Assembly (NCBI GenBank): GCA_963802145.1
Contig: CAWDHN010000006.1
Coordinates: 7,434 to 71,433, forward strand
DNA: 64,000 nt
Direction of reading: 5' to 3'
DNA from: an uncultured Rikenellaceae bacterium
GTDB lineage: Bacteria; Bacteroidota; Bacteroidia; Bacteroidales; VadinHA17
Made by a program: the position numbers and the translations under genes. Below the pieces are notes generated by a model that had not been told where the DNA came from, searched no databases, and worked only from the letters and a program-made list of their open reading frames with translations. Position 1 is the stretch's first letter, and every line of letters starts with the position of its first letter. Of this stretch, positions 15,370-32,914 are shown piece after piece.

Positions 15370-16482
15370 TCATTTCAAAACTTTTGATGAAATAAATTCA
15401 TAATCGTTGCCCGCAGCGCCCGGGGAGGGCCTTACATAGGGAGCCAGACGCTCAGCCTGCTGCGTGCTGATGATCTTGTTGCCGACCATCGACCCCAGCG
15501 TCAGAGGGGGATCAGTGAGTGTCCTGAACCTGCTTATCAGCCTTGCGGTTTCATAACCCACATAGGGATGGCGTGCAAGATCACCGAAGGAAACGCTGTC
15601 GAGGAGCAGGGGCGCGACGGAATCAAAGGTCAGTGTCAACATGGGGGTTATCAGGCTGACGACAGAGCTGTCGAGGCCATATACCTCCCTGAGCTGGTCT
15701 GTTGCGACAAAACCGCCAAGCAGTGCGCGGTACTTTATTATCCTCGCCGAGAGTACCGGTCCGATGCCCGGCAGGCTCTCCAGCTCCTCTGCACTGCACC
15801 TGTTAAGATCGATAAGCACCACCGGTGACTCCCCTGGCGCCCCCTCTGCAGGAGTCCCACGCCCGGATGACGGGGAATACGCTGACTGAGTCCCACGCCC
15901 GGATGACGGGGAATACGCTGCCGGAGCCCCATGCCCGGATGACGTGGAGTACCGGTCAGCAGGCCTTGCTTCAGGAAAGTACCTGTCAGCCCTCCCGGCT
16001 CCCTCTGCCGGAGTGGTCGCCGACCCGTACGATACCTTTCCGGCAGGATCCTCTGCAATAATAATATACGGACCAAGGCGTGCGGCTGTTGATGAGTCTA
16101 TCCCGTAAACCCTGGCCAGATCTTCAGGCCGCCGGAACCTTGCACCGCTGTTACGGTAGTTTATAAGCGTGCCTGCCTGCTTCCCGGTAAGCCCCAGCCG
16201 CAGCAGGTCATCGTACGGGACCGTGTTGGGATCAAATGTGAAGAGCTCCGGGCTGAGGCTCGCATCTGCACCGTTGCCTGCCGTACTGTCGGCCGGTGCC
16301 GCGGGAGGCCTGAGATCGTCAGGCACCCTGCCGGGCCTGAGAGCGGTAAATCTCACCATTATAAGTACTATGAGCAATACCGACAGCAGGTACGTACCCC
16401 GCCTCTCCCGGCGGTCAAAACCGAATAACCCGGCAGCGATCTTCCTGAATGGCTTCACATCTGATACAGCAAGAGACAGCAC
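15370..16482 (-). CDS. ComEA-like helix-hairpin-helix DNA-binding protein with a low-complexity repeat linker
   Basis: 370 aa with one N-terminal TM helix and HhH motifs (LTGKQAGTLINYR; LESLPGIGPVLSARIIKYR). The central linker carries the repeat YSPSSGRGT. Confidence 0.75.
   Translation of the reverse strand: MLSLAVSDVKPFRKIAAGLFGFDRRERRGTYLLSVLLIVLIMVRFTALRPGRVPDDLRPPAAPADSTAGNGADASLSPELFTFDPNTVPYDDLLRLGLTGKQAGTLINYRNSGARFRRPEDLARVYGIDSSTAARLGPYIIIAEDPAGKVSYGSATTPAEGAGRADRYFPEARPADRYSTSSGHGAPAAYSPSSGRGTQSAYSPSSGRGTPAEGAPGESPVVLIDLNRCSAEELESLPGIGPVLSARIIKYRALLGGFVATDQLREVYGLDSSVVSLITPMLTLTFDSVAPLLLDSVSFGDLARHPYVGYETARLISRFRTLTDPPLTLGSMVGNKIISTQQAERLAPYVRPSPGAAGNDYEFISSKVLK
15854..15961. repeat. 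36-bp tandem repeat, 3 units, inside the ComEA-like CDS
   Basis: Units at 15854-15889 and 15890-15925 are nearly identical (gtcccacgcccggatgacggggaatacgctg...). The third unit is diverged. They encode the repeats (A/Q)SAYSPSSGRGT. Confidence 0.9.
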
Positions 16483-16520
16483 AAGTTATGCAAAAAAGAA
16501 ATCCGTGTCAAGAGCTGAGA

Positions 16521-16631
16521 GATTTGCGAACTGCGATTTGCGATTTGCGAATGGGGTGTTTGGCTTGAGATTTGCGATTTGGGATCTGGGTATTTTTAAA
16601 ATCGGCAATCGAAAATCTTAAATCGCAAATC
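16521..16631 (-). repeat. Heptad-hairpin intergenic element, copy A (full element with an internal insertion)
   Basis: It starts at the base after the TAG stop (16632-34) of the OMP gene. Read on the minus strand: GATTTGCGATTTAAGATTTTCGATTGCCGATTTT...CATTCGCAAATCGCAAATCGCAGTTCGCAAATC. The 12-mers 16569-16580 and 16620-16631 are perfect reverse complements. Confidence 0.85.
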
Positions 16632-18998
16632 CTAAAACGGATATCCAATCCCGATGACCATCGTCAGATCATCCCTGCGGTCAAAGGTGCCGTTCAGGGG
16701 TATCCACTTGGACCCCTCCGTGGCCATGGGATCGCGGAGTTTCATTCCAAAATCGGCCCTCAGGAGCACGAATTTGATGTCGAACCTTAATCCCGCCCCT
16801 GCCCCTACAGCGATATCGTCAAGGAAGGTATCAAACCTGAACTGGCTGCCGGGTCTGTCCTCATCAGGCTTTACGGTCCATATATTGCCCACATCAACAA
16901 ACGTTGCACCCTCAAGTATCCAGAAGAGCTTGAACCGGTATTCGATGTTGGCCTCCAGTTTCATGTCGGAAGTCAGGTTGATGAATGTACTCTCCTCGGG
17001 CATGACATAGGAGCCGGGACCGAGGGTCCGTACCACCCACGCCCTGATATCATTGGAGCCGCCACCGAAATACTGCTCCTCGAAGGGCATGACCTTTGAG
17101 TTCCCGTAGGCCCATCCTACGCCGGCATACCACCTGTAGACGATACTGCTTGCATCATTGAACCTGTAATTATACGCAGCATCCACCTCTGCCTTGATGA
17201 ATTGCGCAAAGGGCTGCCCGAAGAGGTGGTATGTACCGTCTGAAGCCTTCTCCGCGTTACCCAGGGAGTAAAACATGTTGAGCAGGTTACCGGCGATATC
17301 AAGTCCGAGGCGTATGTTCCAGTAATCCTTTGACTTAGGGATCAACTGGTTGTTGAAGACATAATCGTACCGTCCGCCCACAATCCTGACGTCGCGGTAA
17401 GAAGAGGCAAGGTATGAGGTGGTATCAATCATCGCCTGGTATTCGGGATCAACATAATGCATCTTGACCACATTGAACGACAGTGGAATGATATTGAATT
17501 TCGTGCGTTTGTTGCCAATCCACGAGTAGCCGAGGGATATATTGGCGACTGAGCGCGCGTAGACCGGCACCATCTGGAAGTTATAACCCGCCTGAAATAC
17601 CGTTCGGGGGTCATGGTCGCGGATAAACTTCTCCTTTTCGGGGATTGGCAAAAGGAATTTTGGCAGCCTGAGATTGGCTTCAAAGCCGTACTGCTGTATA
17701 TTCTCGAATCCTGCAGACTCGTCGTTGACAGATTCATATGCCCCCTGCAGCTTCAGGCTGAAGACCTCTGCGCCTCCGAAAAGGCTTTTGTTCTGATATA
17801 TCAGGTTCAGTGCTCCGCCAAGGTTACCTCCCCAATTTGTTGTACCTTCGAGCTCAACGGTGAATGACTGCCTCATCAGGGGAGTGAGCTGAATGATGCA
17901 GTCGAGCATGCCCACATCTCTCCTTTCACCGGTAATGCCTTCTGCATCGATGTATGACACATTAACAAGCCTGTGGTTCTTGAGATCGGCCAGGTGAGTT
18001 TCCGTCTGCCTGGCATTTGTCTGGCTGAACCACGCCCCGGGTGCGACATAGAGTGCCTGGGTCAGCACCTCGGGCTTGACCAGCTGCCTGCCGGGCGGTG
18101 CGACGAAGTGGATCCCCTTGTAAAAAGTTGTGTCAAAGGTCATGGTGTATGCCTCCCCTGCCGTGAGTGACAGACTGGGATCAAAGTCAGGAAAGACATA
18201 TACATCCCTTACCCGGTACATCCGGTGGTTGCTGTATTCCGGCCGGCCCTTGCTGTCCAGGGTGCTCCTTAGGGTAACGACATACTGTACAATGACCTGG
18301 TGGTTCATCTGCGTACTGTCAATACGGAAATAGATATTCTCCGACGAGAAGGTGAAAAAACCCAGGTCCCTTATGAAGAGTTCCAGTCTCTGGCGCTCAC
18401 GCTGGAGAAGGTCTACATCGTATATCATCCCCCTCTTCACGGTGCAGTTCGACGTGTCCATCATCACGAAGGTGGAAAGGATAGTATCCTGAATATCATA
18501 CTGTACGCTGGCTATTGTATAGGGTCTGCCGGGGTCAACGGCATACTGTACCCTGGCCTCTCTCTTTTCGGTCTTCACCGTGTCTGCGACCCTGGCATTG
18601 AAAAACCCCTTTGACCAAAGGTAGCTCTCTATCTGTCCGGCTGATCTGTCTGCCGCTGCGGGATCAAATACCACCGGCTCCTCGCCGATCCTTCTCAGCC
18701 ACCCGTGGGGCCACTTGCTCTTCTCAATATTTGAAAGGTTATAGAGCCCGAGGTGGAACCTGGCGCCAAAGATCTTCTTGTTTGGCTGTTGCCGGAGATA
18801 AGGTTTTATCGCACTCTTGCTGACCGTTGATGGCAACGGCACGCTGCTCTCTTTCAGCACAATCACGTTGCTGTTCAGGAGCAAGTCGTCTCTTGGGACA
18901 TATTTTGTGGGGTTGCAGGAGGCTACCGTAAAAATAATGATCACCAGCAGAAACAGTTTGGGAGCAGTAATTTTTATATTTGTTCTCTGATGGATCAA
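16632..18998 (-). CDS. BamA/TamA (Omp85) family outer membrane protein, lipoprotein-type signal
   Basis: Long ORF with a beta-barrel-like C-terminus ending in F. The track start (GTG at 19067) overlaps the divergent trmH gene and a -7 box. An in-frame TTG at 18998 gives (M)IHQRTNIKITAPKLFLLVIIIFTVASC. The start position is an inference. Confidence 0.75.
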   Translation of the reverse strand: MIHQRTNIKITAPKLFLLVIIIFTVASCNPTKYVPRDDLLLNSNVIVLKESSVPLPSTVSKSAIKPYLRQQPNKKIFGARFHLGLYNLSNIEKSKWPHGWLRRIGEEPVVFDPAAADRSAGQIESYLWSKGFFNARVADTVKTEKREARVQYAVDPGRPYTIASVQYDIQDTILSTFVMMDTSNCTVKRGMIYDVDLLQRERQRLELFIRDLGFFTFSSENIYFRIDSTQMNHQVIVQYVVTLRSTLDSKGRPEYSNHRMYRVRDVYVFPDFDPSLSLTAGEAYTMTFDTTFYKGIHFVAPPGRQLVKPEVLTQALYVAPGAWFSQTNARQTETHLADLKNHRLVNVSYIDAEGITGERRDVGMLDCIIQLTPLMRQSFTVELEGTTNWGGNLGGALNLIYQNKSLFGGAEVFSLKLQGAYESVNDESAGFENIQQYGFEANLRLPKFLLPIPEKEKFIRDHDPRTVFQAGYNFQMVPVYARSVANISLGYSWIGNKRTKFNIIPLSFNVVKMHYVDPEYQAMIDTTSYLASSYRDVRIVGGRYDYVFNNQLIPKSKDYWNIRLGLDIAGNLLNMFYSLGNAEKASDGTYHLFGQPFAQFIKAEVDAAYNYRFNDASSIVYRWYAGVGWAYGNSKVMPFEEQYFGGGSNDIRAWVVRTLGPGSYVMPEESTFINLTSDMKLEANIEYRFKLFWILEGATFVDVGNIWTVKPDEDRPGSQFRFDTFLDDIAVGAGAGLRFDIKFVLLRADFGMKLRDPMATEGSKWIPLNGTFDRRDDLTMVIGIGYPF

Positions 18999-19021
18999 TT
19001 TACCGGTAACATAGGTGCAAG

Positions 19022-19029
19022 CAAATATA
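19022..19029 (-). promoter_or_regulatory. -7 box (TATATTTG) for the Omp85-family gene
   Basis: The minus strand reads TATATTTG, matching TAnnTTTG, 24 nt upstream of the proposed TTG start. Confidence 0.4.
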
Positions 19030-19070
19030 CCATTATAAACTCTATTTTCAATCACTGAACAATGCACAGG

Positions 19071-19844
19071 ATGATCACCCGAAATCAGGCAAAAATGATA
19101 CTCTCACTGCAGAAGAGAAAGGTAAGGGAGGAGAACTCCCTCTTTGTCATCGAGGGTGATAAACTGGTTCGTGAGTATATCATGGCCGGTAACAGGGTAT
19201 CGCTTCTGGCAGGAAAGCCCGAGTGGATCGACGGTGAGCCTGAGGCGGTGATTGCGGGGGCAGATGAGATAGTCACTGTCAGCTATGAAGAGCTCCGGCG
19301 CATCAGCTCGCTGAAGACACCGCACAATGTGCTGGCCCTGGCGCCCATGGCAAAAGGCGATTACTCTGATCATCTCCTTACCGGGAGAGTCACTCCTGTG
19401 CTCGAGTATGTTCAGGACCCCGGGAATCTTGGAACAATAATACGTATTGCCGCCTGGTTCGGCATGTCAAACATTGTCTGTTCGCCCGACTGTGTCGACT
19501 TTTACAATCCGAAAGTGATACAGGCGACCATGGGGGCATTCATGCACGTCAGTGTATGGTACCGGCCACTGGAATCGTTTCTGGGGAAGGCAGTGACTGA
19601 TGGGATTCCGGTCTACGGGGCTACCATGGACGGGCGTTCGATATATGACGCTGATATCGGCGGTGAAGGCATTATTCTGTTTGGAAACGAATCGAGAGGT
19701 ATCTCCGATAAACTGCTTGGCTATGTGACCCGGCACATCACCATCCCCGGCCCCCCCAGGCCTCTGGCAGGAATTGAGTCTCTGAATGTAAGCATGGCCG
19801 CGGCCATCGTCTGTTCCGAATTTGCAAGGCGGAAACGTAGCTGA
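19071..19844 (+). CDS. TrmH/SpoU-family RNA 2'-O-methyltransferase
   Basis: Motifs DPGNLGTIIRIAAWFG, ILFGNESRGIS and ESLNVSMAAAIV. The likely start is the ATG at 19071 (MITRNQAK); the track starts at 19062. Confidence 0.88.
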   Translation: MITRNQAKMILSLQKRKVREENSLFVIEGDKLVREYIMAGNRVSLLAGKPEWIDGEPEAVIAGADEIVTVSYEELRRISSLKTPHNVLALAPMAKGDYSDHLLTGRVTPVLEYVQDPGNLGTIIRIAAWFGMSNIVCSPDCVDFYNPKVIQATMGAFMHVSVWYRPLESFLGKAVTDGIPVYGATMDGRSIYDADIGGEGIILFGNESRGISDKLLGYVTRHITIPGPPRPLAGIESLNVSMAAAIVCSEFARRKRS

Positions 19845-19852
19845 GAGGGACA

Positions 19853-19969
19853 GACTTCAGTCTTCAGTCTTCAGTCTTCAGTCCTCAGTCCTCAGTCTTG
19901 TCAATAGGCCTAACCATCTGTTTATTAATTCTTAATTCCTGCGACTGCCGACTGCTGACTGCCGACTGG
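19853..19969. repeat. Inverted (CAGTCNN)n heptamer arrays filling a convergent intergenic region (element F)
   Basis: The left array at 19853-19899 is (CAGTCTT)3(CAGTCCT)2CAGTCTT. The right array at 19939-19969 is CTGCGACTGCCGACTGCTGACTGCCGACTGG, the reverse complement of (CAGTCNN)4. Confidence 0.85.
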
Positions 19970-19970
19970 A

Positions 19971-21512
19971 TTACTGCCTGTCACGCGCCACTCTCCCGGC
20001 CACCAGCATGCCGTCGACTGCCGATGAGACGATGCCTCCGGCGTAGCCCGCTCCTTCACCTGCAGGAAATAATCCTTCAACATTGATCGCATTGAGCTTT
20101 TCAGGGTCACGGGTTATACGCACCGGCGAGGAGGTACGTGATTCCACTGCTGCCACGAGGGCCTCACCCGTAAGATAACCCTTCATCTTCTTCCCGAAAT
20201 CCCTGAACCCCTCACGCAACCGCATGGAGATCTCCTGTGGCAGCCACTCGTGCAGTGGCGAGGCCGTCAGGCCGGGGAAATATGATCCCTCCGGCAGTGT
20301 TGCCGATGCTCTTCCATCAACAAAATCAGTGAGCCTCTGTGCCGGAGCCCGCTGTGTCATGCCTCCTTCCCTCCATGAAAGCTGTTCAAGGAACGACTGG
20401 TATTCCAGCCCTGCAAGGGCTCCTCCCCCATAATGTATCGCATCCTCCTCCCTTATCTCCGTGACAATGCCGCTGTTTGCCCACCGCGAGTTGCGCCGCG
20501 ATGGTGACATGCCGTTCACCACCACCTCACCGGGACTGGTTGCCGAGGGTACCATGAAACCGCCGGGGCACATGCAGAATGAGTATACGCCGCGGCCACC
20601 GGCCTGCGTCACCAGGTTGTATGCGGCAGCCGGGAGGTACTGGCCTCTCGCCTTGCCGTGATACTGTATGCGGTCAATCAACTCCTGCGGATGCTCGACC
20701 CTGACTCCCATGGCAAACGGTTTGTATTCGAGACTCACTCCCAGGGAAGCGAGAATATGGTATATATCCCTTGCTGAATGGCCTGTGGCGAGAATAATAT
20801 CATCAGCCCTGAACTCCTCGTTGCCGTTGACTGTCACCCCCCGGAAGAGGCCGTTCTCAATCATCATTCCAGTGATGCGCTTCCCGAAGAGCACCTCTCC
20901 CCCTGCTCCGGTTATGCTCTCCCGTATTGCCGTTACGACTCCCGGCAGCCTGTCGGTGCCCAGATGGGGATGGGCCTCATACAGTATCGCCGGATCAGCA
21001 CCGTGCAGGACGAGCAATTCGACCACCCGGCGGTTGTCGCCTCTCTTCTTCGACCTGGTGTAGAGCTTTCCGTCAGAGAAGGTGCCTGCCCCGCCCTCAC
21101 CGAAGCAGTAATTTGAGTCTGAATCCACAATATGTTTTGTGCTGATGGCTGCCACATCCCTCTTGCGCTCCTTCACCTCCCTGCCCCGCTCCAGAATCAC
21201 AGGCTTCAGTCCCGCCTCAATCAGGCTCAGCGCCGCAAAGAGTCCAGCGGGGCCGCTGCCTGCCACGAGCACCTCCCTTGCCCGGGAGACATCCCTGACC
21301 TTCAGCGGCGGTATCACCTCAGGGGGTTCTCCGGCACCGATGATCTGAACGGTAATGTTGATTTTTATCTCCGGCCTGCGGGCATCAACGGATCGCCGGA
21401 CGATGCGCATGGTGAAATCATCCCTCCCGGTCTTCCTGACCAGATAAGTCCTGAGCGAAGCCTCGTCAAAGGCTGTCTGAGGAGGCAGAACCAGGCTCAG
21501 CTCCTCAGCCAT
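19971..21512 (-). CDS. FAD-dependent oxidoreductase (COG2509-like uncharacterised dehydrogenase)
   Basis: 513 aa with the dinucleotide-binding motif VLVAGSGPAGLFAAL and the C-terminal FPAGEGAGYAGGIVSSAVDG. Confidence 0.75.
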   Translation of the reverse strand: MAEELSLVLPPQTAFDEASLRTYLVRKTGRDDFTMRIVRRSVDARRPEIKINITVQIIGAGEPPEVIPPLKVRDVSRAREVLVAGSGPAGLFAALSLIEAGLKPVILERGREVKERKRDVAAISTKHIVDSDSNYCFGEGGAGTFSDGKLYTRSKKRGDNRRVVELLVLHGADPAILYEAHPHLGTDRLPGVVTAIRESITGAGGEVLFGKRITGMMIENGLFRGVTVNGNEEFRADDIILATGHSARDIYHILASLGVSLEYKPFAMGVRVEHPQELIDRIQYHGKARGQYLPAAAYNLVTQAGGRGVYSFCMCPGGFMVPSATSPGEVVVNGMSPSRRNSRWANSGIVTEIREEDAIHYGGGALAGLEYQSFLEQLSWREGGMTQRAPAQRLTDFVDGRASATLPEGSYFPGLTASPLHEWLPQEISMRLREGFRDFGKKMKGYLTGEALVAAVESRTSSPVRITRDPEKLNAINVEGLFPAGEGAGYAGGIVSSAVDGMLVAGRVARDRQ

Positions 21513-21514
21513 GA

Positions 21515-22237
21515 CTATTCAAAATGGAAAGAGAGAACCCACATCTGGGACCGCATCGACTGGATCGAATTGACGTATTCGGGATGACGGTCATCAGGTT
21601 CATGTACCAGGACGTCGAACAGGCCGTTGGACATCTTTGCTTCAATGGTGAGCTTGAAATATGGCAGGTAGAAGTCTATCCCCGCCCCTATCTCATAATA
21701 TAAGTCGGCCCTCTTCAGCCTCATCGATACGTTGCGCGAGTCATCATACTCCTTCTTGCCTGCCAGGTCATACCTGAAGTTCACGCCGCCGATAACATAA
21801 GGCCTGGAGTTGTTCAGCCTCATCCCCTTGTATTTTATGAGCAGAGGGAACTCGAGGAATGATGATTCCAGGATCTGCGTCTCCCCCCACAGGGTGCCGG
21901 TCGTATCGTAGAAATTAATGTTCCGCTGTCCGAATGAGACTCCCGGAAGGAACCTTATATCAAGATAGGTCGCCGGACGGTAGTCAGTGACAATCTGTAT
22001 GTTCAGGCCGGGTTTGAGAGAGACAACTTCAGCCTGGAGTGCGGACTCACTGTTCATTTTAATATTGAAGTCCATGGTGTTGGCTCCCATGCTGAAACCG
22101 AAATGCAGCAGCCTCTCGTCGTAATTCGAGTCATTCTTGGGTTTCGCTTTCTGTGCTGTCAGCACGACAGGGATCAATAGAAAGAGAAATATGGCAGTCC
22201 TTTTATTCACTGGTACGAAGAGTCCTAATAAACACAA
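21515..22237 (-). CDS. PorT-like outer membrane beta-barrel protein
   Basis: 240 aa with a signal peptide, alternating beta-strand pattern and a terminal F. It lies directly downstream of ubiE/menG, an arrangement I recall for porT/sprT in Bacteroidota. The family assignment is from memory. Confidence 0.55.
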   Translation of the reverse strand: MCLLGLFVPVNKRTAIFLFLLIPVVLTAQKAKPKNDSNYDERLLHFGFSMGANTMDFNIKMNSESALQAEVVSLKPGLNIQIVTDYRPATYLDIRFLPGVSFGQRNINFYDTTGTLWGETQILESSFLEFPLLIKYKGMRLNNSRPYVIGGVNFRYDLAGKKEYDDSRNVSMRLKRADLYYEIGAGIDFYLPYFKLTIEAKMSNGLFDVLVHEPDDRHPEYVNSIQSMRSQMWVLSFHFE

Positions 22238-22272
22238 CGCAAAAATTCCCGATTAATTGCATCCGGAATTCA

Positions 22273-23016
22273 TCATGGTCTGAAACCATGGTATATACTG
22301 GCTATCCCTCCTGTCAGCCTCGTCTGTTTCACCCCGGTAAAGCCCGCCAGTAGCATCAGTTCCAGGAACCGTTCATTGTCGGGAAATGACATCACCGATT
22401 CGGGCAGGTATGTATAGGCGTCAGGGTCGCCTGACACTTTCCTTCCTATCCGCGGAAGTATCCGTCTGAAATAGAGTCCGTATATCTGTTTCAGGGGGAA
22501 CCACGAGGGCCTGGAAAACTCCAGTACCATTATCATTCCTCCCGGTCTGAGTACCCTGCACATCTCGCGGAGGCCGGCACCTGTATCTTCAAAGTTACGG
22601 ACGCCGAAGGCAGACATCGTCACGTCAAATGTCCCGTCGCCAAATTCCATTGTCTGCGAGTCGCCCTTAACAAGCTCTATCCTCTCTCCGAGACCCATCC
22701 GGGTGATCTTCCGGCGGCCCTCCTCAAGCATCTTTCCGCTTATGTCTATCCCGGTGACCTTTTGCGGCCCGAGCTTCAGGGCCTCTATGGCCAGGTCACC
22801 TGTGCCCGTGGCCACATCAAGCATGGTTACCGGTCTGATATGAAAGCCTATGAGGTCAATCGCCCTGCTCCTCCAGCGTCTGTCGGTACCCATCGACAGG
22901 ATCCGGTTGAGCCTGTCATAATGCTTCGAAATGGAATCGAACATCGCCTCCACCTGTTCCTTCGGAGCACCTTTATGTTGTTTTTTGTCAGGCATCATTT
23001 TGCAATGGAGCGCCAA
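22273..23016 (-). CDS. ubiE: Demethylmenaquinone/ubiquinone methyltransferase
   Basis: Contains MFDSISKHYDRLNRILSMGTDRRWR and the SAM motif LDVATGTGDLA. The true start may be the MPDKK Met a few codons into the ORF. Confidence 0.9.
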   Translation of the reverse strand: MALHCKMMPDKKQHKGAPKEQVEAMFDSISKHYDRLNRILSMGTDRRWRSRAIDLIGFHIRPVTMLDVATGTGDLAIEALKLGPQKVTGIDISGKMLEEGRRKITRMGLGERIELVKGDSQTMEFGDGTFDVTMSAFGVRNFEDTGAGLREMCRVLRPGGMIMVLEFSRPSWFPLKQIYGLYFRRILPRIGRKVSGDPDAYTYLPESVMSFPDNERFLELMLLAGFTGVKQTRLTGGIASIYHGFRP

Positions 23017-23064
23017 AGATACCCTTAAAATTGTTTACATTTACCCCTCTTAAACAGATATCCC

Positions 23065-23829
23065 ATGAGAAAGACTGTACTTATCACCGGTGCAACCTCA
23101 GGCATCGGAGAAGCGACCGCAATCAAGTTCGCAGAAGCATCTGACAGACTAATTATTACAGGCAGAAGGAAAGAGAGACTTGACGAGCTCACCGGGCATC
23201 TTGTCACCACCTACGACGTAGAGGTCCTCTCTCTCTGTTTTGACGTAAGGGTAAAGAGTGAGGTGGATAAGCATCTCGGCAACCTCCCTGATGACTGGAA
23301 GAAGATAGATATCCTTGTCAACAATGCCGGGCTGGCAGTCGGACTCGGTCATATTGACAAAGGAGACACTGACGACTGGGACCGAATGATCGACACCAAT
23401 GTCAAGGGGCTGCTCTATGTCACCCGGGCTGTCTCTCCGGGGATGGTGGAGAGGGGTTCCGGTCACATAATAAATATCTCCTCCATTGCCGGCAAGGAGG
23501 TATATGAGAACGGGTCGGTCTACTGTGCATCCAAGCATGCCGTCGACGCTCTTTCGAAGGCGATGCGCATCGATCTGCTGAAGCACGGCATAAAAGTTAC
23601 GAACATAGCCCCGGGCATGGCGGAGACGGAGTTCTCCCTGGTACGCTTTAAGGGTGACAGTGACAGGGCATCTGCGGTTTATACCGGCATCCAGCCCCTG
23701 AGAGGCGAAGATATTGCAGAAGCAATCCATTATTGTACCAGCCTGCCGGATCACGTCTGCATTAATGATCTCGTGATCACTCCGAAGGCACAGGCAAACG
23801 CAACAAACAGTTACAGAAAAACAGAATAA
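23065..23829 (+). CDS. SDR-family NAD(P)-dependent oxidoreductase (YdfG-like)
   Basis: TGATSGIG cofactor motif, NNAG, and the catalytic YCASK. Confidence 0.88.
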   Translation: MRKTVLITGATSGIGEATAIKFAEASDRLIITGRRKERLDELTGHLVTTYDVEVLSLCFDVRVKSEVDKHLGNLPDDWKKIDILVNNAGLAVGLGHIDKGDTDDWDRMIDTNVKGLLYVTRAVSPGMVERGSGHIINISSIAGKEVYENGSVYCASKHAVDALSKAMRIDLLKHGIKVTNIAPGMAETEFSLVRFKGDSDRASAVYTGIQPLRGEDIAEAIHYCTSLPDHVCINDLVITPKAQANATNSYRKTE

Positions 23830-23831
23830 CA

Positions 23832-26800
23832 ATGAAAAGAACAATCCTTGTATCAATCCTGATCACTGCACTGCTTTCGATGGCAGTACAGGATATGAAT
23901 GGCATAAATACATCCGATACCAGGATGATGTCACAGCCGGCTGTCAGCCCATCACATATTGCTTTCATCTATGCAGAGGACCTTTGGGTAATGAATGCCG
24001 ACGGCTCCTCGCCCAGGCGGCTGACCGTGGATGAAGGGATCGAGTCTGACCCCTGCTTCTCTCCTGACGGTAAGCTGATTGCCTTCAGCGCCCAGTACGA
24101 CGGCAACACAGACGTCTTCATCATTCCTGTCGAAGGCGGCTTGCCCGTGAGGCTCACCTGGCACCCGGGAAACGACATTGTCAGTGGTTTTACCCCGAAT
24201 GGCACGAGTGTCTTGTTTTCATCTCAGAGGTCATCATTCACCAGCAGGTACACCCAGCTCTATACCATTGGTATCAGCGGCGGTTACCCCGTGAAGCTGC
24301 AGATACCCAACGCCTATGATGCAACATACTCTCCTGACGGCAGAAGGATGGCCTATATCCCGATAGCCCCCAGGCACGGTCAGTGGAAGAACTACAGGGG
24401 CGGGACAGTGTCAACCATCTGGGTATATGAATTTGCAGACCGCTCCGTGGTGAAAATTCCCCAGCCTGATGGAGGGTGCAATGACACTGAGCCAATGTGG
24501 ATCGGAGATAAAATATATTTCGTGAGCGACAGGAACGGTGAGTTGAACCTCTTTTCCTATAATGTCAGCGGGGGTGAGATCCTTCAGCTTACGAAATATG
24601 ACGATTTCCCTGTGCTGAAGGCTTCAGCCTCCACCGGCAGGATAGTCTTTGAACAGGCCGGTTATCTGCATTCTCTTGAGATTGCCACCGGTGCTGCGGC
24701 TAAACTGAAGGTGGGCATTGCAGCTGACCTGCTTGAATTGAGGCCCCGCTACATTCAGGGCCCTAACTACATCCGCAGCGGCGACATCTCCCCAACCGGC
24801 AGTCGCGTTGTGTTTGATTACAGGGGAGAGATTATCACACTTCCTGCCGAGAAGGGAGATCCGAGAAACATAACCCTTACCCCAGGTGCACATGAAACAT
24901 ACCCCTCCTGGTCACCTGACGGGAAGACAATCGCCTTTTTCTCCGATGCCTCGGGGGAATACACCCTCCACCTCAAGCCGCAGGACGGTAAAGGAGAACC
25001 GAAGATATTCACACTTCCGGGAACAGGTTTTTATGCTTTCCCGAAATGGTCACCAGACAGCAAAAAGATCACCTTCGTTGACAACGGGAGGAACTTTTAC
25101 CTGCTTGACATTCAGTCAGGAATAATCAACAAGATCGCTTCTGACGACCTGTACGTCCCGGACCCCTTCAGGGCAATGTCCGGCGACTGGTCATCAGACT
25201 CCAGATGGATCGCTTACACCAGAGTAATGCCAACTTACTTCAGGGTTGTCTACCTCTATTCCGTTGATCAGCAGAAGTCATTCCCCGTCACCGACGGATT
25301 GAGCGACGCCTCTGAACCGGTCTTCGATCCCAATGGAGAATATATTTATTTCTTTGCATCCACTGATGCCGGGCCGGTATTGAACTGGTTTGACCTTTCA
25401 TCGGCAGATATGAGGAGTACAAGCTCAATCTACCTCGTTACACTGAGAAAAGAGATCACCTCCCCCTTTGCAAAGGATAGTGATGAGGAGAAAGGCACAG
25501 AGGAGAAGGCTGATGCTGAGGCGCCTGCCCCCAATGCCCCCGGTAAAACCACAAAAAAAGATGCAAAGAAGGATCCTGCACCTGAGGTTAAGGCGAATTT
25601 GATGAAGATCGATACCGAAGGACTGCAGGAAAGAATTGTCAATGTACCGGTCTCTGCCGGCAACTATACCAATCTTGGAGTTGCCGCAACGGGAGAGATA
25701 CTCTACATTGAAAGGCCTGACGGTCAGGGCGCGTCGAAGCTTCACAAATATTCTGTAAAAGACAGGAAGGATGAGGAGGTGATGGAGCTTGACAACTACG
25801 CTGTCAGCGCTGACCGTAAGAAAATGCTCTATAACAAGGGGATGACATTCGGGATATCCGCCGCCGGCAAGAAGCCGGAACCGGGAAAAGGGATCCTCAA
25901 CACCGGAGCCCTCTCTGTCAGGATCGATCCGGTTGCCGAGTGGCCTCAGATATTTGACGAGGCATGGAGGATCAACCGCGATTACTTCTATGACCCGGGG
26001 ATGCATGGTGCCGACTGGAAGGCCATGAGGGTGAAGTATTCTCAGTTCCTGCCTGACGTTGCATGCAGAAGTGACCTCAACCGGGTGATACAGTGGATGT
26101 GCAGCGAACTCTCCGTTGGCCACCACAGGGTTGGCGGCGGCGACAGGATGAGCACTCCCCCGAGAGTGGGAGGCGGATTGCTTGGCGCCGACTTCAGCGT
26201 GGAAAACAACCGGTACCGTTTGAAGAAGATCTACGGCGGACTGAACTGGAGCCCCGACCTGAGGTCACCGCTGACAGAACCGGGACTGAACGTGAAGGAG
26301 GGTGAGTATATCCTTGCCATCGACGGTAAGGATGTCACAGCTGACAGGAATATACACTCATTCCTTGAAAATACAGACGGCAAGCTAATCGAGCTGACAG
26401 TAGGCCCCAATCCCGTTTATGCAGGATCAAGGGTGATAAAGGTTGTGCCTGTGGGCAATGAAAGCAGCCTGCGTAACCGCGACTGGGTAGAGGGGAACCT
26501 CAGGAAGGTGACCGAAGCCACGGACGGCCGCGTGGCATATGTCTATGTCCCCAATACATCAAACCAGGGACATGAGTATTTCAAGAGATATTTCTTCCCG
26601 CAGGCAGACAGGCAGGCGATCATCATTGATGAGAGGTTCAACGGAGGCGGATTGATAGCCGATTATTATATTGACCTTCTGCAGCGGCCCCTGCAGTCGT
26701 ACTGGAACATGCGCTACGGCAAAGACCTCAAGACACCCAGCGCTTCAATCCAGGGACCCAAGGTAATGATCATCGATGAGACAGCCGGATCAGGAGGGGA

Positions 26801-27131
26801 TATGCTTCCCTGGATGTTCAGGAAATTCAAGGTCGGAACACTTGTTGGCAAACGGACCTGGGGAGGCCTGGTGGGAACACTCGGATTTCCCGAGCTTATG
26901 GATGGAGGCATGGTGACGGCACCCAACCTGGCTATCTGGACTGACGAAGGTTTTATAGTGGAAAACGTAGGGGTGGCCCCGGACATTGAGGTTGAACAAT
27001 GGCCTGCAGATGTCATTGAGGGAAGGGATCCTCAGCTTGAGAAAGCCATTGAGGTGGCGCTCAGGGAGCTTGAGAAGAACCCGCCAGCCGAGCCGGTGAG
27101 GCCGCCATATCCGGTGAGGGTGAGGAAATAA
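23832..27131 (+). CDS. Tricorn-protease-like S41 peptidase (beta-propellers, PDZ, S41 domain)
   Basis: 1099 aa with a signal peptide, TolB/WD40-like repeats (SPDGK..IAF repeated), and a C-terminal S41 region (IDERFNGGG, TAGSGGD). Confidence 0.85.
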   Translation: MKRTILVSILITALLSMAVQDMNGINTSDTRMMSQPAVSPSHIAFIYAEDLWVMNADGSSPRRLTVDEGIESDPCFSPDGKLIAFSAQYDGNTDVFIIPVEGGLPVRLTWHPGNDIVSGFTPNGTSVLFSSQRSSFTSRYTQLYTIGISGGYPVKLQIPNAYDATYSPDGRRMAYIPIAPRHGQWKNYRGGTVSTIWVYEFADRSVVKIPQPDGGCNDTEPMWIGDKIYFVSDRNGELNLFSYNVSGGEILQLTKYDDFPVLKASASTGRIVFEQAGYLHSLEIATGAAAKLKVGIAADLLELRPRYIQGPNYIRSGDISPTGSRVVFDYRGEIITLPAEKGDPRNITLTPGAHETYPSWSPDGKTIAFFSDASGEYTLHLKPQDGKGEPKIFTLPGTGFYAFPKWSPDSKKITFVDNGRNFYLLDIQSGIINKIASDDLYVPDPFRAMSGDWSSDSRWIAYTRVMPTYFRVVYLYSVDQQKSFPVTDGLSDASEPVFDPNGEYIYFFASTDAGPVLNWFDLSSADMRSTSSIYLVTLRKEITSPFAKDSDEEKGTEEKADAEAPAPNAPGKTTKKDAKKDPAPEVKANLMKIDTEGLQERIVNVPVSAGNYTNLGVAATGEILYIERPDGQGASKLHKYSVKDRKDEEVMELDNYAVSADRKKMLYNKGMTFGISAAGKKPEPGKGILNTGALSVRIDPVAEWPQIFDEAWRINRDYFYDPGMHGADWKAMRVKYSQFLPDVACRSDLNRVIQWMCSELSVGHHRVGGGDRMSTPPRVGGGLLGADFSVENNRYRLKKIYGGLNWSPDLRSPLTEPGLNVKEGEYILAIDGKDVTADRNIHSFLENTDGKLIELTVGPNPVYAGSRVIKVVPVGNESSLRNRDWVEGNLRKVTEATDGRVAYVYVPNTSNQGHEYFKRYFFPQADRQAIIIDERFNGGGLIADYYIDLLQRPLQSYWNMRYGKDLKTPSASIQGPKVMIIDETAGSGGDMLPWMFRKFKVGTLVGKRTWGGLVGTLGFPELMDGGMVTAPNLAIWTDEGFIVENVGVAPDIEVEQWPADVIEGRDPQLEKAIEVALRELEKNPPAEPVRPPYPVRVRK

Positions 27132-27215
27132 AATTGCGATTTAAGATTTTCGATTGTCGATTTAAAAAACATTCGCAAATCGCAAATCGCAAATCGCAAA
27201 TCGCAAATCGCAAAT
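27132..27215 (+). repeat. Heptad-hairpin intergenic element, copy B (archetype)
   Basis: It starts at the base after the TAA stop (27129-31): AATTGCGATTTAAGATTTTCGATTGTCGATTTAAAAAACATT followed by (CGCAAAT)x6 at 27174-27215. The left arm is four degenerate NNGATTT heptads complementary to the right array. Confidence 0.9.
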
Positions 27216-27244
27216 ACTAACTACTTTCGACTAACCCCTCAGAC

Positions 27245-28324
27245 ATGTACGACCACAAATATCTGTTAGAATTCACCACTGAACTCTTCATGCGCATAGG
27301 CTGCAGCCGCGATGATGCCGGCGCTGTTGCCTCGGTGCTCATTGCTGCCGAGCTGCGCGGACACTCATCGCACGGCATGATAAGGATCAAGGAGTACTAT
27401 GACCTATGGAAGACAGGGCGGGTGAATGTAACCCCGGAGGTTAAGGTAGTTCACCAGACCCCTTCTACCGCTGTGGTCGACGGCGACAGGTGCTTCGGGA
27501 TGGTGGCAGGCATGAAGTCCATGAAGCTGGCTATTGAAAAGGCTGCGACCACTGGTACTGGGTGGGTGGCGACAAAAAACTCAAACCACTTCGGGATAGC
27601 CGGGTACTATGCCATGATGGCTCTTGAGCATGATATGGTAGGGATATGCGTCACTAACGCCAACCCCCTGGTGGTGCCCACCTGGTCGGTGAGCCGGTAC
27701 CTCGGTACCAATCCCCTTGCCGTGGCTGTACCGGCACTGCAGGAACCTCCCTTCATTGCCGATTTTGCCACTACCCCTATCGCCCGGGGAAAGCTCGCCG
27801 TATCCGAAAAGAAGGGCGAGAAGGTGCTGCTGGGATTTGTGCAGGATGCCGAGGGCAACCCGTCGGATGATCCTGGCATTCTTCGGCGTGGAGGCGGCAT
27901 GCTGACCCTTGGAGGCGATCGTCCCCACGGGAGCCATAAGGGTTACTGTATGGCAGCCGTGGTAGACATATTCAGTTCTGTCTTCAGCGGTGCCAACTTC
28001 GGGCCTTTTGTGCCACCAAGCGTGGCCTACCTGCCTGTGCCCGAAAACCAGCCGGGTGAGGGAACAGGACATTTCTTCGGGGCCATGCGCATCGATGCCT
28101 TCAGGCCGGCGGATGAATTCAAGAGCTCAATGGACCAGTGGATAAAAACATTTCGTAGTGCAAAACCGATAAAGGGGGAGACAAGGGTACTGATACCCGG
28201 TGATCCTGAACGGGAAGCAGAGGAGCAGAACAGGAAATCCGGAATTAAGCTGGTTCCTGCAGTGGTTGATGACCTCCGCACGCTGGCCACCACACTGGGA
28301 GTCGAATTCCGGGAAAGTGTCTGA
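27245..28324 (+). CDS. Ldh_2 family (malate/L-lactate/sulfolactate-type) dehydrogenase
   Basis: 359 aa containing GHSSHGMIRI, SNHFGIAGYY and GSHKGY, which are characteristic of the Ldh_2 family. Confidence 0.8.
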   Translation: MYDHKYLLEFTTELFMRIGCSRDDAGAVASVLIAAELRGHSSHGMIRIKEYYDLWKTGRVNVTPEVKVVHQTPSTAVVDGDRCFGMVAGMKSMKLAIEKAATTGTGWVATKNSNHFGIAGYYAMMALEHDMVGICVTNANPLVVPTWSVSRYLGTNPLAVAVPALQEPPFIADFATTPIARGKLAVSEKKGEKVLLGFVQDAEGNPSDDPGILRRGGGMLTLGGDRPHGSHKGYCMAAVVDIFSSVFSGANFGPFVPPSVAYLPVPENQPGEGTGHFFGAMRIDAFRPADEFKSSMDQWIKTFRSAKPIKGETRVLIPGDPEREAEEQNRKSGIKLVPAVVDDLRTLATTLGVEFRESV

Positions 28325-28440
28325 CGATGCCGGCGGCCGGTTAGCCACTGTCTGACATTCCTTATCCTCTTCGAGGAATTTTATTGGATTATAACCGTCT
28401 TTGCTACAATACTTTATGCGCTACGCGCAATTTTTCACCA

Positions 28441-28533
28441 CTGCTGACTGCCGTCCCGACGCACTTCGTGGCCGGGATTGAGCCTCCTCCTACGTCGGAG
28501 TCTCAAACTGCCGGCTGAGGACTTACCCTTCCC
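28441..28533 (+). repeat. Mosaic intergenic element G: heptads, conserved 60-nt two-hairpin core, GGCTGAGGAC module
   Basis: CTGCTGACTGCC, then the core 28453-28512 (GTCCCGACGCACTTCGTGGCCGGGATTGAGCCTCCTCCTACGTCGGAGTCTCAAACTGCC), then GGCTGAGGACTTACCCTTCCC. The core aligns with the reverse complement of 54203-54260. The last module aligns with 56663-56684. Confidence 0.8.
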
Positions 28534-28606
28534 TGCAATCTGGCTGCTCGCTGTAATGACCCACCGGGTCATTACTTAACGCTCGCCCCTCGACTGGTCT
28601 GCTGTC

Positions 28607-29350
28607 TCAGAAAACGAATCCCTGCCTCCGGATGACCTCAAGGTATTTTGCAGAGAAGAATTCGTTGTCAGCCTTCTTGTAACGAACATCAGTGAAGACC
28701 TGGGCAAGAGTTTTCTTGTTGTTCTCCGCAATGAACTGAAGGGAGTCATCACGGGCCTCCTTAGCCTTGTATATATCGTCAATCACTGACGGAGAATAAT
28801 CGCGATACCTCTCATAATGCACCACGGCCTCAAGCGGCAGCCTGTCAGGCTGCCCGGGTACCAGCGCCGGCCAGCCCACAGTTACTGTGGCGACAGGCAC
28901 CACCCCTCCTGGCAGCTCCAGAATATCGATGATCTTGTCAGCATTGTAGGTGACAGTACCCAGGTAGCATATACCCAACCCCTCCTCCTCGGCAGCATTG
29001 CAAACTGTCTGTGCGACAAGCAGTGCATCGATGGCAGCCGTCATGAAAGAGAGGAAATTGTCATAGCCGGGCTCCGCCTCGCGCTGCCGGCACCATCGGT
29101 TGAACCTGTTGAAGTCGGCACAGAAGGTCAGTATCACCGGCGCCTCCGTCACCATCGGCTGATTGAAGTGTGCCGGTGCCAGTCTTTTCTTCATCTCAGC
29201 ATCACGAGTCACTATAATGCTGTAAACCTGCATATTGCCCGTGGTTGAAGCCCTCGTGCCCGCAGTAAGAATCCGCTCAAGAAGCCTGCTCTCTATCTCC
29301 CTGTCCTCATACTTCCTGACTGTCCTCCTGGTAAAATATGTGCTGTTCAT
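28607..29350 (-). CDS. Nitroreductase-family NAD(P)H oxidoreductase (NfsA-like)
   Basis: 247 aa. The N-terminal RRTVRKY motif and overall length and pattern are typical of the nitroreductase fold. Confidence 0.78.
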   Translation of the reverse strand: MNSTYFTRRTVRKYEDREIESRLLERILTAGTRASTTGNMQVYSIIVTRDAEMKKRLAPAHFNQPMVTEAPVILTFCADFNRFNRWCRQREAEPGYDNFLSFMTAAIDALLVAQTVCNAAEEEGLGICYLGTVTYNADKIIDILELPGGVVPVATVTVGWPALVPGQPDRLPLEAVVHYERYRDYSPSVIDDIYKAKEARDDSLQFIAENNKKTLAQVFTDVRYKKADNEFFSAKYLEVIRRQGFVF

Positions 29351-29461
29351 CTCTGTTGCTGTTAATCCCCGGCAAAATAATTAAATAACGTTAAAAAATA
29401 CTCCTGCAAAATTCCTTATCTTACCTTAGCAATATAAATAAGCAACCCAAAACAACCCTTT

Positions 29462-32400
29462 ATGAAAAAAATTCTGACAGTAGCTTTGGTAATCGTGCTT
29501 GCCGGTTCATGCAGCCTGTGGGCACAGAAAAAGGAGACAAAGAAAGATGCGAAGGGATCTGAGACCCAGGTCAAGCCTTCCGTCCCCACCTCCCTATTCA
29601 GTAACATAACATTCAGGTCTGTGGGCCCTGCATGGGCTTCGGGACGTATTGCCGACCTGGCTGTAAACCCCTGCAATCATTCCGAGATCTATGCCGCGAT
29701 AGCTTCAGGCAACATCTGGAAGAGCGTAAACAACGGGACCACATGGCAACCAATATTTGACAAATACGGTGCTTATGCCATTGGGTGCATTGTGATTGAT
29801 CCCAGCAACCATAATGTCGTATGGGCCGGAACAGGCGAGAACAACCACCAGCGCGCACTCGGCTGGGGTGACGGCGTCTATCGCTCAGACGATGCAGGTG
29901 CCAGCTGGAAGAATATGGGGCTGAAGGAATCACGGCAGATAGGCGGTATCGCCATCGATCCCCGTAACAGTGATGTAGTCTATGTGGCTGCTGAGGGATC
30001 AGTGTGGGGGCCCGGCGGAGAGCGCGGGCTGTACAAATCAGTAAACGGCGGCAAGTCGTGGGAAAAGATCCTGAATATCAGCGAAAACACCGGTATCAAC
30101 AACGTGGTGCTCGATCCCCGTAATCCTGACGTGATCTATGCCACCAGCGAACAGCGGCGCAGGCACGTGGGACTGAAGATAAGCGGCGGCCCGGAGTCGG
30201 CCGTCTACAAATCCACCAACGGAGGCGTGTCATTCGACAAAATCATGAAGGGCCTCCCGGGAGGTGACATAGGCGGTATGGGCATCGCAATTTCGCCGGT
30301 AAACCCTGACGTGCTCTATCTTATCGTGGAGGCACAGGGCGAATCAGGGGGCTTCTACAGGACAGTGAACAGGGGCGCCTCGTGGGAGAGGATGAACTCA
30401 TACCATGCCAGCGGACAGTATTACAACAAGATAATATGTGATCCGAAGGATGTCGACCGGGTCTTCAGCCTTGATACATATACCCAGGTCACCCTTGACG
30501 GCGGCAAGACATTTTCAAGGGTGAGCAACGAAGGACGCCATGTGGATGACCACGCCATGTGGATCGATCCGGATGACACCAAACACTTCTACATAGGTGG
30601 CGACGGCGGCATCTACGAGACATGGGACAACGGCACTAATTTCATCTTCAAGTCGAATCTGCCCGTTACACAGTTCTACAGGGTGGCTGTTGATAACTCC
30701 TACCCCTTCTATTATATATATGGTGGCACCCAGGACAACAACTCCATGGGAGGACCCTCGGCAAGCACAAGCGACGGTGTGACCAATGACGACTGGTTTG
30801 TGACACAGGGAGGCGACGGCTTCTGGGTGGCTATTGACCCGACAGATCCGAATATCGTCTATACCGAATCACAGTATGGCAATGCATCGCGCTATGACCG
30901 CAAGAGCGGACAGAGCGTCAGCGTCAAACCCTTTCCCGGAGAAGGAGAACTGACCTACCGCTGGAACTGGGACACGCCAATACTCATCAGTCCGCATAAC
31001 AACAAACGCATCTATATGGCCGCCAACTTCCTCTTCCGCAGCGAGGACCAGGGCAGCAACTGGAAGACGATATCTCCGGACCTTACCAGGAATGAGAACA
31101 GGGACAACCTCAAGGTTATGGACAAATACTGGCCGGCTGATGCCGTCGCCAAAAACAAATCCACCTCACTCCTTGGCACAATCATTGCGCTCACAGAGTC
31201 AAAGGTTCAGAAAGACCTCCTCTATACAGGGAGCGATGACGGCGTGCTTTCGGTTACGGAAGACGGCGGGGCAAACTGGAGGATGATCAAGACCTTCCCG
31301 GGTGTGCCGGAATATGCCTATGTGAGTGATATCCTGGCCGACAAGTTCAATGCTGACATTGTCTACGTCACCTTTAACAATCATTTGCGTGACGACTTCA
31401 AGCCCTACGTTCTGAAGAGCACTGACAAGGGAAAGAACTGGATCTCCGTCAGCGGCAACCTGCCGGCGAACGGCCCCGTGCATACCATTGAGCAGGATCA
31501 CCTGAACCCGAACCTGCTGTTCCTGGGCACGGAATTCAGTTTCTTTGTCTCATTTGACGGCGGCACCAGCTGGACCGAGTTCAACAAGGGACTCCCGACG
31601 ATAGCTGTCCGTGACATAGCCATCCAGGAGCGTGAAAATGACCTCGTCATAGCAACGTTCGGAAGGGGATTCTATGTGATAGACGACTACACACCGCTCC
31701 GCAACTACAAAAAGGAGATTATGGGAAAACCCGGCTACATTTTCCCCGTCAGGGAGGCAAAGATGTTTGTCCAGACCAGTGAATTTGACAACCAGGGTTC
31801 AATGTACTATATGGCGAAAAACCCGGCTTACGGTGCAACTGTGACATACTATGTGGATACTGTCCCGAAAACCGGGAAGGATATCAGAAAGGATATGGAG
31901 AAGAAGCTATCTGAAAAGGGTGAGTTCATTCCCCAGCCGACAGCGAGGGAGCTGAGCCTGGAAGAGAGGGAGATCAAACCCTATCTCATCTTCACCATTA
32001 CCGATGATGACGGAAACGTCATCCGTAAGCTCTACAAGTCAGCATCAAAGGGTGTAGGCCGGGTGACATGGAACTTCACCTATGCCGGTTATCAGCCGGT
32101 CAGGGCAACTGAAAAGTTCAACCCTGTGTCAGAGGGCGAGGGTCGCAGCAGATGGGGCGGCGGAGGCATCTCTGTGATGCCGGGCAAATACTTCATCTCA
32201 ATGGCAATGTATGCCAAGGGTGAGGTGAAGGAGCTTGCCGGTCCCGAACCGTTTGTCTGCAAACCGCTTGACATTGTGACAATGCCTGTCACCGATGCTG
32301 CGGCCAAAGAGAGCTGGCTGAAGGAGATGACTGCACTCGCAAAGACAGCATATGGAGCCATCTCATATGCTGCAGAGCTCGAGAGCAAGGTGAACACCAT

Positions 32401-32764: not shown

Positions 32765-32786
32765 CGGCAGCCTGCTGAATGCAAAA

Positions 32787-32820
32787 AAAACCGGTTCTGT
32801 TCCCAGAGCCGGTTTTTTTA
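32787..32820. terminator. Bidirectional intrinsic terminator
   Basis: A-run, then AACCGGTTCT-GTTCCC-AGAGCCGGTT (one G:U pair), then a T-run. It lies 23 nt after the stop of the BNR protein. Confidence 0.75.
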
Positions 32821-32821
32821 T

Positions 32822-32905: not shown

Positions 32906-32914
32906 TTCTTCTGC

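Follow-up and report, generated by a model that had tools for sequence, protein, structure and literature searches.

What two opposed heptanucleotide arrays signify in the narrow space between convergent genes is the question raised by this locus in an uncultured Bacteroidales bacterium, where a gap of 126 nt from stop to stop (19845-19970) consists almost wholly of repeat. Coordinates are those of the window, by which we mean the whole 64-kb stretch of DNA that was analysed; it has a G+C content of 51% and contains a Bacteroidales-type small SRP RNA. On one side of the gap lies a SpoU/TrmH-type RNA methyltransferase gene (19062-19844, + strand; Pfam PF00588 and PF22435), named 'TrmH family RNA methyltransferase' by one source, and on the other a convergent gene for an FAD-dependent protein (19971-21512, - strand; Pfam PF21688). 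The repeat element between them is 118 nt long and built of tandem units. Its left arm (19851-19899, + strand), CAGACTT (CAGTCTT)3 (CAGTCCT)2 CAGTCTT, comprises seven units with the consensus CAGTCYT (TRF period 7, 7.0 copies, score 77) and begins 7 nt past the TGA stop of the methylase gene. After a loop at 19900-19938, the right arm (19939-19968, + strand) reads CTGCGA CTGCCGA CTGCTGA CTGCCGA CTGG, that is (GACTGCN)4, and finishes 2 nt short of the stop codon of the FAD gene; TRF places it at 19942-19968 (3.9 copies, score 47). The reverse complement of the right arm is (CAGTCGG/CAGTCAG)n. The arms, 39-44 nt apart, have a pentamer in common that is invariant except in the first left unit, CAGACTT, while the accompanying dinucleotide varies within the window's arms. 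Inverted arrays around a 39-nt AT-rich loop had been described here by the original prediction, and that description stands: the sequence reads identically, TRF detects both arms, and the loop is 39 nt long with 69% A+T.

The 3' UTR of the methylase gene would contain a hairpin made of these arms, and the 3' UTR of the FAD gene its reverse complement. RNA folding of either strand predicts a ladder of four to five 5-bp CAGUC/GACUG helices with 2x2 loops between them, the fold z-scores being -2.1 to -2.3 for the + strand and -2.6 to -2.7 for the - strand; the proposed ladder of 5-bp helices and internal loops was in this respect borne out on both strands (z -2.1 to -2.7). A stable DNA cruciform was considered and set aside, the support from the DNA fold being weak (z -1.15). 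No terminator-like site was detected at 19845-19970, and no T-run follows either arm on either strand at the locus; with neither U-tract nor consensus match, an intrinsic (Rho-independent) terminator is ruled out. Canonical terminators occur elsewhere in the window, at 32786-32820 and 36055-36100. A known RNA family is likewise ruled out, since Rfam 15 gave no match at the locus at gathering thresholds, nor over 16400-33000 at E <= 1.

Taken by itself, the complementarity of the window's two arms is not significant: their consensus units are complementary at 5/7 positions, a level equalled or exceeded by 17% of unrelated array pairs. We take the pair to be real because the orthologous gaps of relatives hold inverted pairs. 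In L128, a relative with an FAD protein at least 90% identical, (CAGTCTT)n faces a longer (GAYTGCY)n arm with fold z-scores of -3.4/-4.1, and in L131, at 78% identity, the arms are complementary at all seven positions, with G-U pairs (z -5.3/-5.1); the corresponding values for the window hairpin are -2.1/-2.7. Both orthologs also carry an arm of the GACTGCN type. The methylase-proximal units of L131 are CAGTC followed by AG, GG or TG, exact complements of GACTGCN, and those of the window and L128 are CAGTC followed by TT or CT. The loop sequence is not conserved, the loops of L128 and L131 being unrelated. An inverted CAGTC/GACTG pair consequently persists at the trmH/FAD gap even where protein identity has fallen to 78%. 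It has been lost from L127 (at least 90% identical), which has instead a direct (AATCGCA)n array and an 8-mer array; the trmH/FAD gap of L127 folds into no hairpin (z -0.8/+1.5), and the hairpin is therefore dispensable at that gap.

The periodic 2-nt mismatch of the ladder looks like a derived, decaying state and not an architecture, because the L131 ortholog is an almost perfect hairpin (z -5.3). Once one arm has been homogenised to a variant unit, the identical 2-nt mismatch must recur every 7 nt. The polarity 'perfect hairpin first, ladder derived' depends on L131 as the outgroup. Furthermore, a CAGTCGG unit near the stop with a distal GACTGAA unit recurs as a combination in another gap of L128, so that the mismatch may have come with a copied element instead of originating in this gap. 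A mirror-symmetric order of variant units between the arms, which would point to hairpin-templated copying, was also sought; the arrays are so homogeneous that all in-phase registers score alike.

Other orthologous gaps show the same turnover of repeat families. The Omp85/comEA gap carries the AATCG family in the window and in L127, whereas L128 and L131 have an inverted pair of AGGCA/TGCCT there. In the gap between a Tricorn-like peptidase gene and Ldh_2, the window (27090-27275) has an AATCG composite, L127 (4220-4400) has that composite reverse-complemented, and L128 (4170-4410) has an element that runs from CAGTCGG through a two-hairpin core, present twice, to GACTGAA. This spacer is wholly different among relatives with proteins at least 90% identical, and the flanking stop and start regions are conserved. 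Two further features were seen around comEA. The Omp85/comEA gap of L127 (14893-15022) contains about three repeats of a unit of about 45 nt that itself includes (ATTTGCG)3, a higher-order repeat; and within the comEA-like (HHH_3) gene of the window lies a 36-nt tandem repeat (15851-15952; 2.8 copies, 89% matches), the called product of this gene being 317, 346, 370 or 157 aa, depending on the relative.

How the arms change over short times can be read from six near-identical metagenome contigs with an identical methylase protein, which were aligned with the window. Five of them span the gap, with lengths of 112, 119 or 126 nt: the left arm is shorter by 7 nt (one unit) in L001, L002 and L004, and the right arm by 14 nt (two units) in L003. 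The (AATCGCA)n array in the GT2/GT4 gap likewise has a variant with 7 additional nt. Such gain and loss of whole 7-nt units between near-identical strains points to replication slippage, and whole-unit copy-number polymorphism between strains is a property of long simple sequence repeats (SSRs). Substitutions reach the pentamer as well, CAGTC having become CATTC in one left unit of L002 and L004, and GACTG having become TACTG in the right arm of L001; in the strain alignment none is accompanied by a compensating change in the opposite arm. The arms are also unequal, seven units standing against four. They behave like a slippage-prone microsatellite, unlike a constrained recognition array, and the uncompensated changes and unmatched arm lengths look neutral. 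As a separate observation, the short-read contigs L132, L212, L213 and L214 of relatives end in or just beside the arrays of the trmH/FAD gap; the arrays fragment short-read assemblies, and such repeats will therefore be under-counted in metagenome-assembled genomes (MAGs).

The locus is one copy of a fast-evolving set of intergenic repeats of 7-nt period that is abundant in this Bacteroidales lineage. The window contains 6-8 period-7 arrays, whereas other periods from 4 to 12 each give 0-2, and 68 kb of close relatives contain 7, against 0-1 of other periods; period 7 is specifically over-represented and is a lineage-wide property, the excess having been measured on these 64 kb plus 68 kb. 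More distant Bacteroidota yielded 9 period-7 arrays in 161 kb and 8 in 786 kb. Besides the CAGTC pair, the window has arrays of an AATCG/CGATT family at 16522-16631, 27132-27215, 32841-32903, 54263-54285 and 56692-56723, and three of these loci are inverted pairs too. Every array locus in the window sits in a gap that receives the 3' end of a gene. On a manual reading of the list of open reading frames, arrays occupy 4 of 7 convergent gaps (5 of 7 with the remnant at 28441, described below) as against 2 of about 44 other gaps, a preference with a Fisher p of 0.002 to 0.0002.

Three of the AATCG loci (16522-16631, 27132-27215 and 32841-32903) are copies of one composite element, in which a perfect (ATTTGCG)n/(AATCGCA)n array is joined to a fixed degenerate arm, AAATCGNCAATCGAAAATCTTAAATCGN. 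That arm keeps one order of variant units in all three window copies, each of which directly adjoins a stop codon. The identical order argues for copying between loci and against independent slippage. A fixed orientation of the composite relative to the upstream gene, suggested by 3 of 3 window copies, was discarded, as L127 has the reverse complement at the orthologous gap.

Repeats of other kinds were noted along the way. Right after the stop codon of a trkA-like gene, at 54130-54199, stands an array of 9-nt period, (AAAGTCCGT)n, in a gap that also houses a small hairpin and an AATCG array and is 36 nt shorter in the close relative L210. Among divergent gaps, only that between FtsX-like and TonB/M56-like genes was seen to have a repeat, a 20-nt A+T-rich tandem repeat (37854-37901; 2.4 copies). 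A long insertion of repetitive, CAG/CAA-rich sequence, rich in glutamine codons, is present in the rho gene (44290-44860); in it several tandem-repeat periods (15, 21 and 24 nt) overlap. In three more distant Bacteroidota relatives, inverted heptamer pairs occur at apparently one position (L136:1300-1382, L140:5530-5640 and L147:1509-1609), near a conserved gene start (..ggtctgctcat); their units are unrelated (AAGACCG/CCGTCTT, AAGTCNG/..CTTCC and GTTCCTC/GAGGACC), and they lie upstream of the start, not 3' of a stop.

A connection between the trmH/FAD gap and repeats at 28441-28523 had been proposed, and one of its two sequence links has held. The GACTGCN-family remnant CTGCTGACTGCC (28441-28452, + strand) is an exact recurrence of a 12-mer for which 0.01 is expected and is significant. 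The 9-mer AGTCCTCAG at 28515-28523, found 3 times against 0.71 expected, is not significant alone. The connection is supported further by related genomes that carry a companion module inside the trmH/FAD gap itself. In the window this module (28510-28595, + strand) consists of GGCTGAGGACTTACCC..GCAATCTGGCTGCT, the hairpin AATGACCCACCGGGTCATT and CGCCCCTC; in L128 and L132 it appears as GGACTTAYCC..GCAATCTGGCT with hairpin and CGCCCCTC, adjoining the GAYTGCY arm, and related modules are found in the trmH/FAD gap of L213 and L214. The remnant CTGCTGACTGCC adjoins a two-hairpin segment of about 54 nt (28453-28506), which, compared with L127, has been inserted in a GACTGNN run; the L127 ortholog has a degenerate GACTGNN run without it. 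ACTGCC borders the insertion and is also an array unit. A further gap of L128 holds the two-hairpin core between CAGTCGG and GACTGAA units. Together, the recurring modules and CAGTC units indicate that the lineage has a mosaic of small intergenic modules, of which CAGTC arrays are one component. The spread of these modules by transposition, by gene conversion or by exchange of whole spacers between strains is possible in each case.

Some details of the modules may be recorded here. Dispersed copies of the companion module lie at 28510-28595 and, in part, at 56661-56690 in the window, and at L128:3049-3118 and L128:11549-11618. Both L128 copies have the hairpin variant CCGCCAGCTGGCGG in place of the AATGACCCACCGGGTCATT of the window and L127, a common variant suggesting that, in the L128 genome, the module was recently copied or one copy was converted. 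The small hairpin ATCCCGGMCACG.AGTG.GTCGGGAC occurs at 28453-28506 and at 54238-54259 in opposite orientations, each time beside a heptamer array; the copy at 28453 belongs to the 54-nt two-hairpin segment, and this segment is tandemly duplicated in L128:4254-4364.

Scanning for (CAGTCNN)3CAGTC, with one genome per species, found at least 120 loci in many phyla; filamentous cyanobacteria, Acidobacteriota, Bacteroidota, Chloroflexota and Planctomycetota are included among the matches listed. In 837 kb around these listed matches there are 149 heptamer arrays that had not been selected for, as against 0-17 for any other period. The expectation that (CAGTCNN)n arrays always form inverted pairs failed, most listed arrays having no partner: among the matches listed, an exact-pentamer inverted partner was found at about 10 of 120 loci, and 59 of 252 arrays of every kind have, no more than 150 nt away, an inverted partner with a match of at least 17/21. 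Pairing is nevertheless far above its controls, which for the same listed matches gave 18 direct partners and 3-4 reversed and complement ones against the 59 inverted; across phyla, inverted partners stand about 15-fold above controls among the matches listed. When 72 neighbouring array pairs from the listed matches are sorted by complementarity, 14 fall in the 7/7 class (about 0.4 expected by chance), 15 in the 6/7 class (about 2.5) and 8 in the 5/7 class (about 9), so that the two best classes together, again among the matches listed, hold 29 pairs against about 3 expected. A general '5+2 ladder' architecture is rejected on these counts, the 5/7 class not being enriched among the listed matches and the 6/7 and 7/7 classes being so. 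The window's 5/7 pair stands at the degenerate end of inverted pairs. Location is informative as well: among the matches listed, 15 of 28 classifiable inverted pairs lie in convergent gaps, against a background of 15% (p 3e-6), and one lies in a divergent gap. T-runs follow few of the listed inverted pairs.

The locus belongs to the heptamer long SSR phenomenon known from other bacteria and is not a new recognition system. Tandem 7-nt units occur here beyond chance, as in heptanucleotide long SSRs; shuffles of the window give 0.25 two-unit matches. In many prokaryotes heptamers are the most abundant class of long SSR, for which polymerase slippage has been proposed (Mrazek 2007, as reported in PMC4679880 and PMC4692102). 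The long SSRs of that survey (Mrazek, Guo and Shah 2007), as they are reported there, resemble the present arrays in their tandem 7-nt units, intergenic position, excess of period 7 in some genomes, unit-step length change and scattered phylogenetic distribution; the accounts of the survey in PMC4679880 and PMC4692102 do not report any treatment of inverted pairs or of location at 3' ends. A close likeness in arrangement is offered by Xanthomonas, whose genomes each have 70-75 inverted pairs of GGGAATC arrays; related species keep the type of pair and differ in its lengths and sequences (Rehm et al. 2015, PMC4692102). There, too, nearby arrays lie on opposite strands, and stem-loop or cruciform potential was noted. 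Opposed nearby arrays of the Xanthomonas type are what we find, and the G-rich GGGAATC unit is not: the Xanthomonas units, in another phylum, form G-quadruplexes, whereas the CAGTCNN units, both CAGTCYT and GACTGCN, have no G-tracts. Moreover, no companion hairpin modules are reported for Xanthomonas (PMC4692102), whereas they are present in this Bacteroidales lineage.

TAACTGA arrays, known from Beggiatoaceae, Cyanobacteria and some Bacteroidetes, change in 7-nt steps and may be missing in close relatives (MacGregor 2015, PMC4679880). They resemble the present arrays in being intergenic, in their 7-nt indels between strains, in the mixed heptamer arrays of Bacteroidetes intergenic regions (PMC4679880), and in that relatives with a matching gene neighbourhood may be without arrays. 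They are mostly direct and just upstream of starts, with one indirect repeat in 170 sets in BOGUAY (PMC4679880), whereas the arrays of the present locus are inverted and follow stop codons; the units also differ, CAGTCTT against CAGTTAT, the reverse complement of TAACTGA. The REP, BIME and REPIN elements of Proteobacteria are dispersed, hairpin-forming, mosaic and intergenic, mainly downstream of coding regions (PMC3733652, PMC3116915), and the present elements are alike in being dispersed mosaic hairpin repeats 3' of genes, plausibly transcribed as RNA hairpins. REPs, however, are imperfect palindromes of 20-40 nt with a GTAG or CGTC tag and a link to RAYTs, and the present arms are microsatellites of variable length; no family-wide tag was found in the copies from the window, L127 and L128. 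Our literature search found no paper on such arrays in Bacteroidales or on the units CAGTCNN, AATCGCA or AGGCANN. The STRR heptamers of heterocystous cyanobacteria, described by Mazel in 1990 and Elhai in 2008, are reportedly families of intergenic arrays into which very small hairpin elements are inserted. In another phylum and with other units, the 54-nt two-hairpin segment (28453-28506) standing within an array would be a counterpart of these insertions, and the small hairpin ATCCCGGMCACG.AGTG.GTCGGGAC that forms part of it resembles the very small mobile elements reportedly present in cyanobacterial heptamer arrays.

That reading of the locus, an inverted pair of heptanucleotide microsatellites, has to be weighed against three others. 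One, which goes back to the original prediction of a protein or recombinase recognition repeat, is that the arrays are periodic sites for a recombinase, nucleoid or RNA-binding protein that reads CAGTC and ignores the two variable bases. The invariance of the pentamer within the window's arms beside its varying dinucleotide suggested it, and the return of CAGTCGG and GACTGAA units at a second locus in L128 is consistent with it. We nonetheless regard it as very unlikely. Every position of the heptamer is paired in the L131 ortholog (z -5.3), pairs of the 5/7 class are no commoner than chance would give (8 observed against about 9 expected among the 72 pairs from the matches listed), strains tolerate the pentamer changes CATTC and TACTG, uncompensated, together with unmatched arm lengths, and comparing any two homogenised arrays automatically gives a periodic mismatch. 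Orthologous gaps, finally, carry unrelated heptamers, AATCG, AGGCA, AAGAC and GGTTCTC among them, in an unchanged arrangement; a single sequence-specific binder cannot explain AATCG, AGGCA and CAGTC in one arrangement at orthologous gaps. Somewhat less improbable, though still rather doubtful, is the neutral view that two independent microsatellites share the gap and that their hairpin is incidental, with no consequence at the RNA or DNA level. The 5/7 match of consensus units that 17% of unrelated array pairs attain, the modest fold z-scores, the unconstrained strain variation and the hairpin-free gap of L127 all agree with it; the inverted and much better paired CAGTC/GACTG arrangement kept by L128 and L131 tells against it, as do the 15-fold excess of inverted partners over controls across phyla, among the matches listed, and the concentration of inverted pairs in convergent gaps.

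A better case, if still an improbable one, can be made for a non-autonomous MITE-, REPIN- or BIME-like element with heptamer arrays as its arms, which would spread between gene 3' ends by means of a transposase (RAYT/IS200-like or other) encoded elsewhere in the genome, slippage only modifying its copies. Composites do recur with a fixed order of variant units, AAATCGNCAATCGAAAATCTTAAATCGN with (ATTTGCG)n three times in the window; CAGTCGG/GACTGAA units bracket the two-hairpin core in another L128 gap; the 54-nt segment has been inserted into the window's GACTGNN run by comparison with L127; the two L128 module copies are more alike than their orthologs; and at the Tricorn/Ldh_2 gap the orientation of the AATCG element is reversed between the window and L127, L128 having a CAGTC element there instead. 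Yet no transposase, RAYT (Y1/HUH transposase) or nuclease gene was found within the 64-kb window or the flanks analysed. The gene content of the window is housekeeping (rpoBC, ribosomal proteins, tuf, Omp85, rho, PFOR, GAPDH and similar), and its sole integrase-family gene is XerD-like, a neighbour of rpsU. As compared with MITEs, the arrays themselves serve as inverted termini; apart from them, terminal inverted repeats could not be recognised, no target-site duplication was clear, and the whole spacers of relatives differ without clean boundaries. The CAGTC pair at the trmH/FAD gap has, moreover, been vertically inherited down to 78% protein identity, and gene conversion or homologous exchange of whole spacers between strains explains the swaps equally well.

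The reading that we prefer, with a probability of about 0.6, is that of an inverted pair of heptanucleotide microsatellites, driven by slippage, which descends from a better-paired hairpin and would most likely be a 3'-end RNA hairpin or a tolerated repeat. The arrays follow closely on stop codons, and most lie between convergent genes. Slippage would homogenise one arm to the variant CAGTCTT instead of CAGTCNG, whereupon two mismatches would recur every 7 nt, and an imperfect hairpin would follow directly after the stop codon in both convergent transcripts. This hairpin would most likely act as a 3'-end structure that blocks 3'-5' exonucleases or helps pausing or termination where there is no canonical terminator; equally open to it is the role of a tolerated selfish repeat, like REP elements and MITEs. 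Copies and modules would in addition move or convert between gaps. A function at the transcript 3' end is the likeliest guess, and the hairpin may have no effect at all. The missing U-tract on both strands, the hairpin-free gap of L127 and the neutral look of the strain variants count against such a function. Against this explanation, too, slippage alone leaves unexplained the differences of whole spacers among relatives with proteins at least 90% identical.

Taken alone, a microsatellite hairpin between convergent genes is nothing out of the ordinary. The regularity to which it leads is under-studied: some bacterial genomes make many 7-nt arrays, about a quarter of which, among the matches listed, form inverted pairs that prefer convergent gaps. 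The present lineage is suited to tests of the choice of period 7, the origin of the inverted partner and any action of the hairpins on transcripts, since its close strains have unlike array families in shared gaps. A joint reading of these results, which we offer as speculative and consider improbable, is that hairpins of inverted heptamer arrays are cross-phylum, self-renewing, length-tunable elements of gene 3' ends that also serve as the arms of mobile mosaics. If this is true, selection or arm-to-arm templated repair would maintain an architecture in which two opposed 7-nt arrays directly follow stop codons, preferably between convergent genes; the sequence of the unit would meanwhile be replaced entirely, orthologous gaps holding the CAGTC, AATCG or AGGCA family; and in Bacteroidales an undescribed, very small mobile mosaic element would swap between gaps and invert in place.
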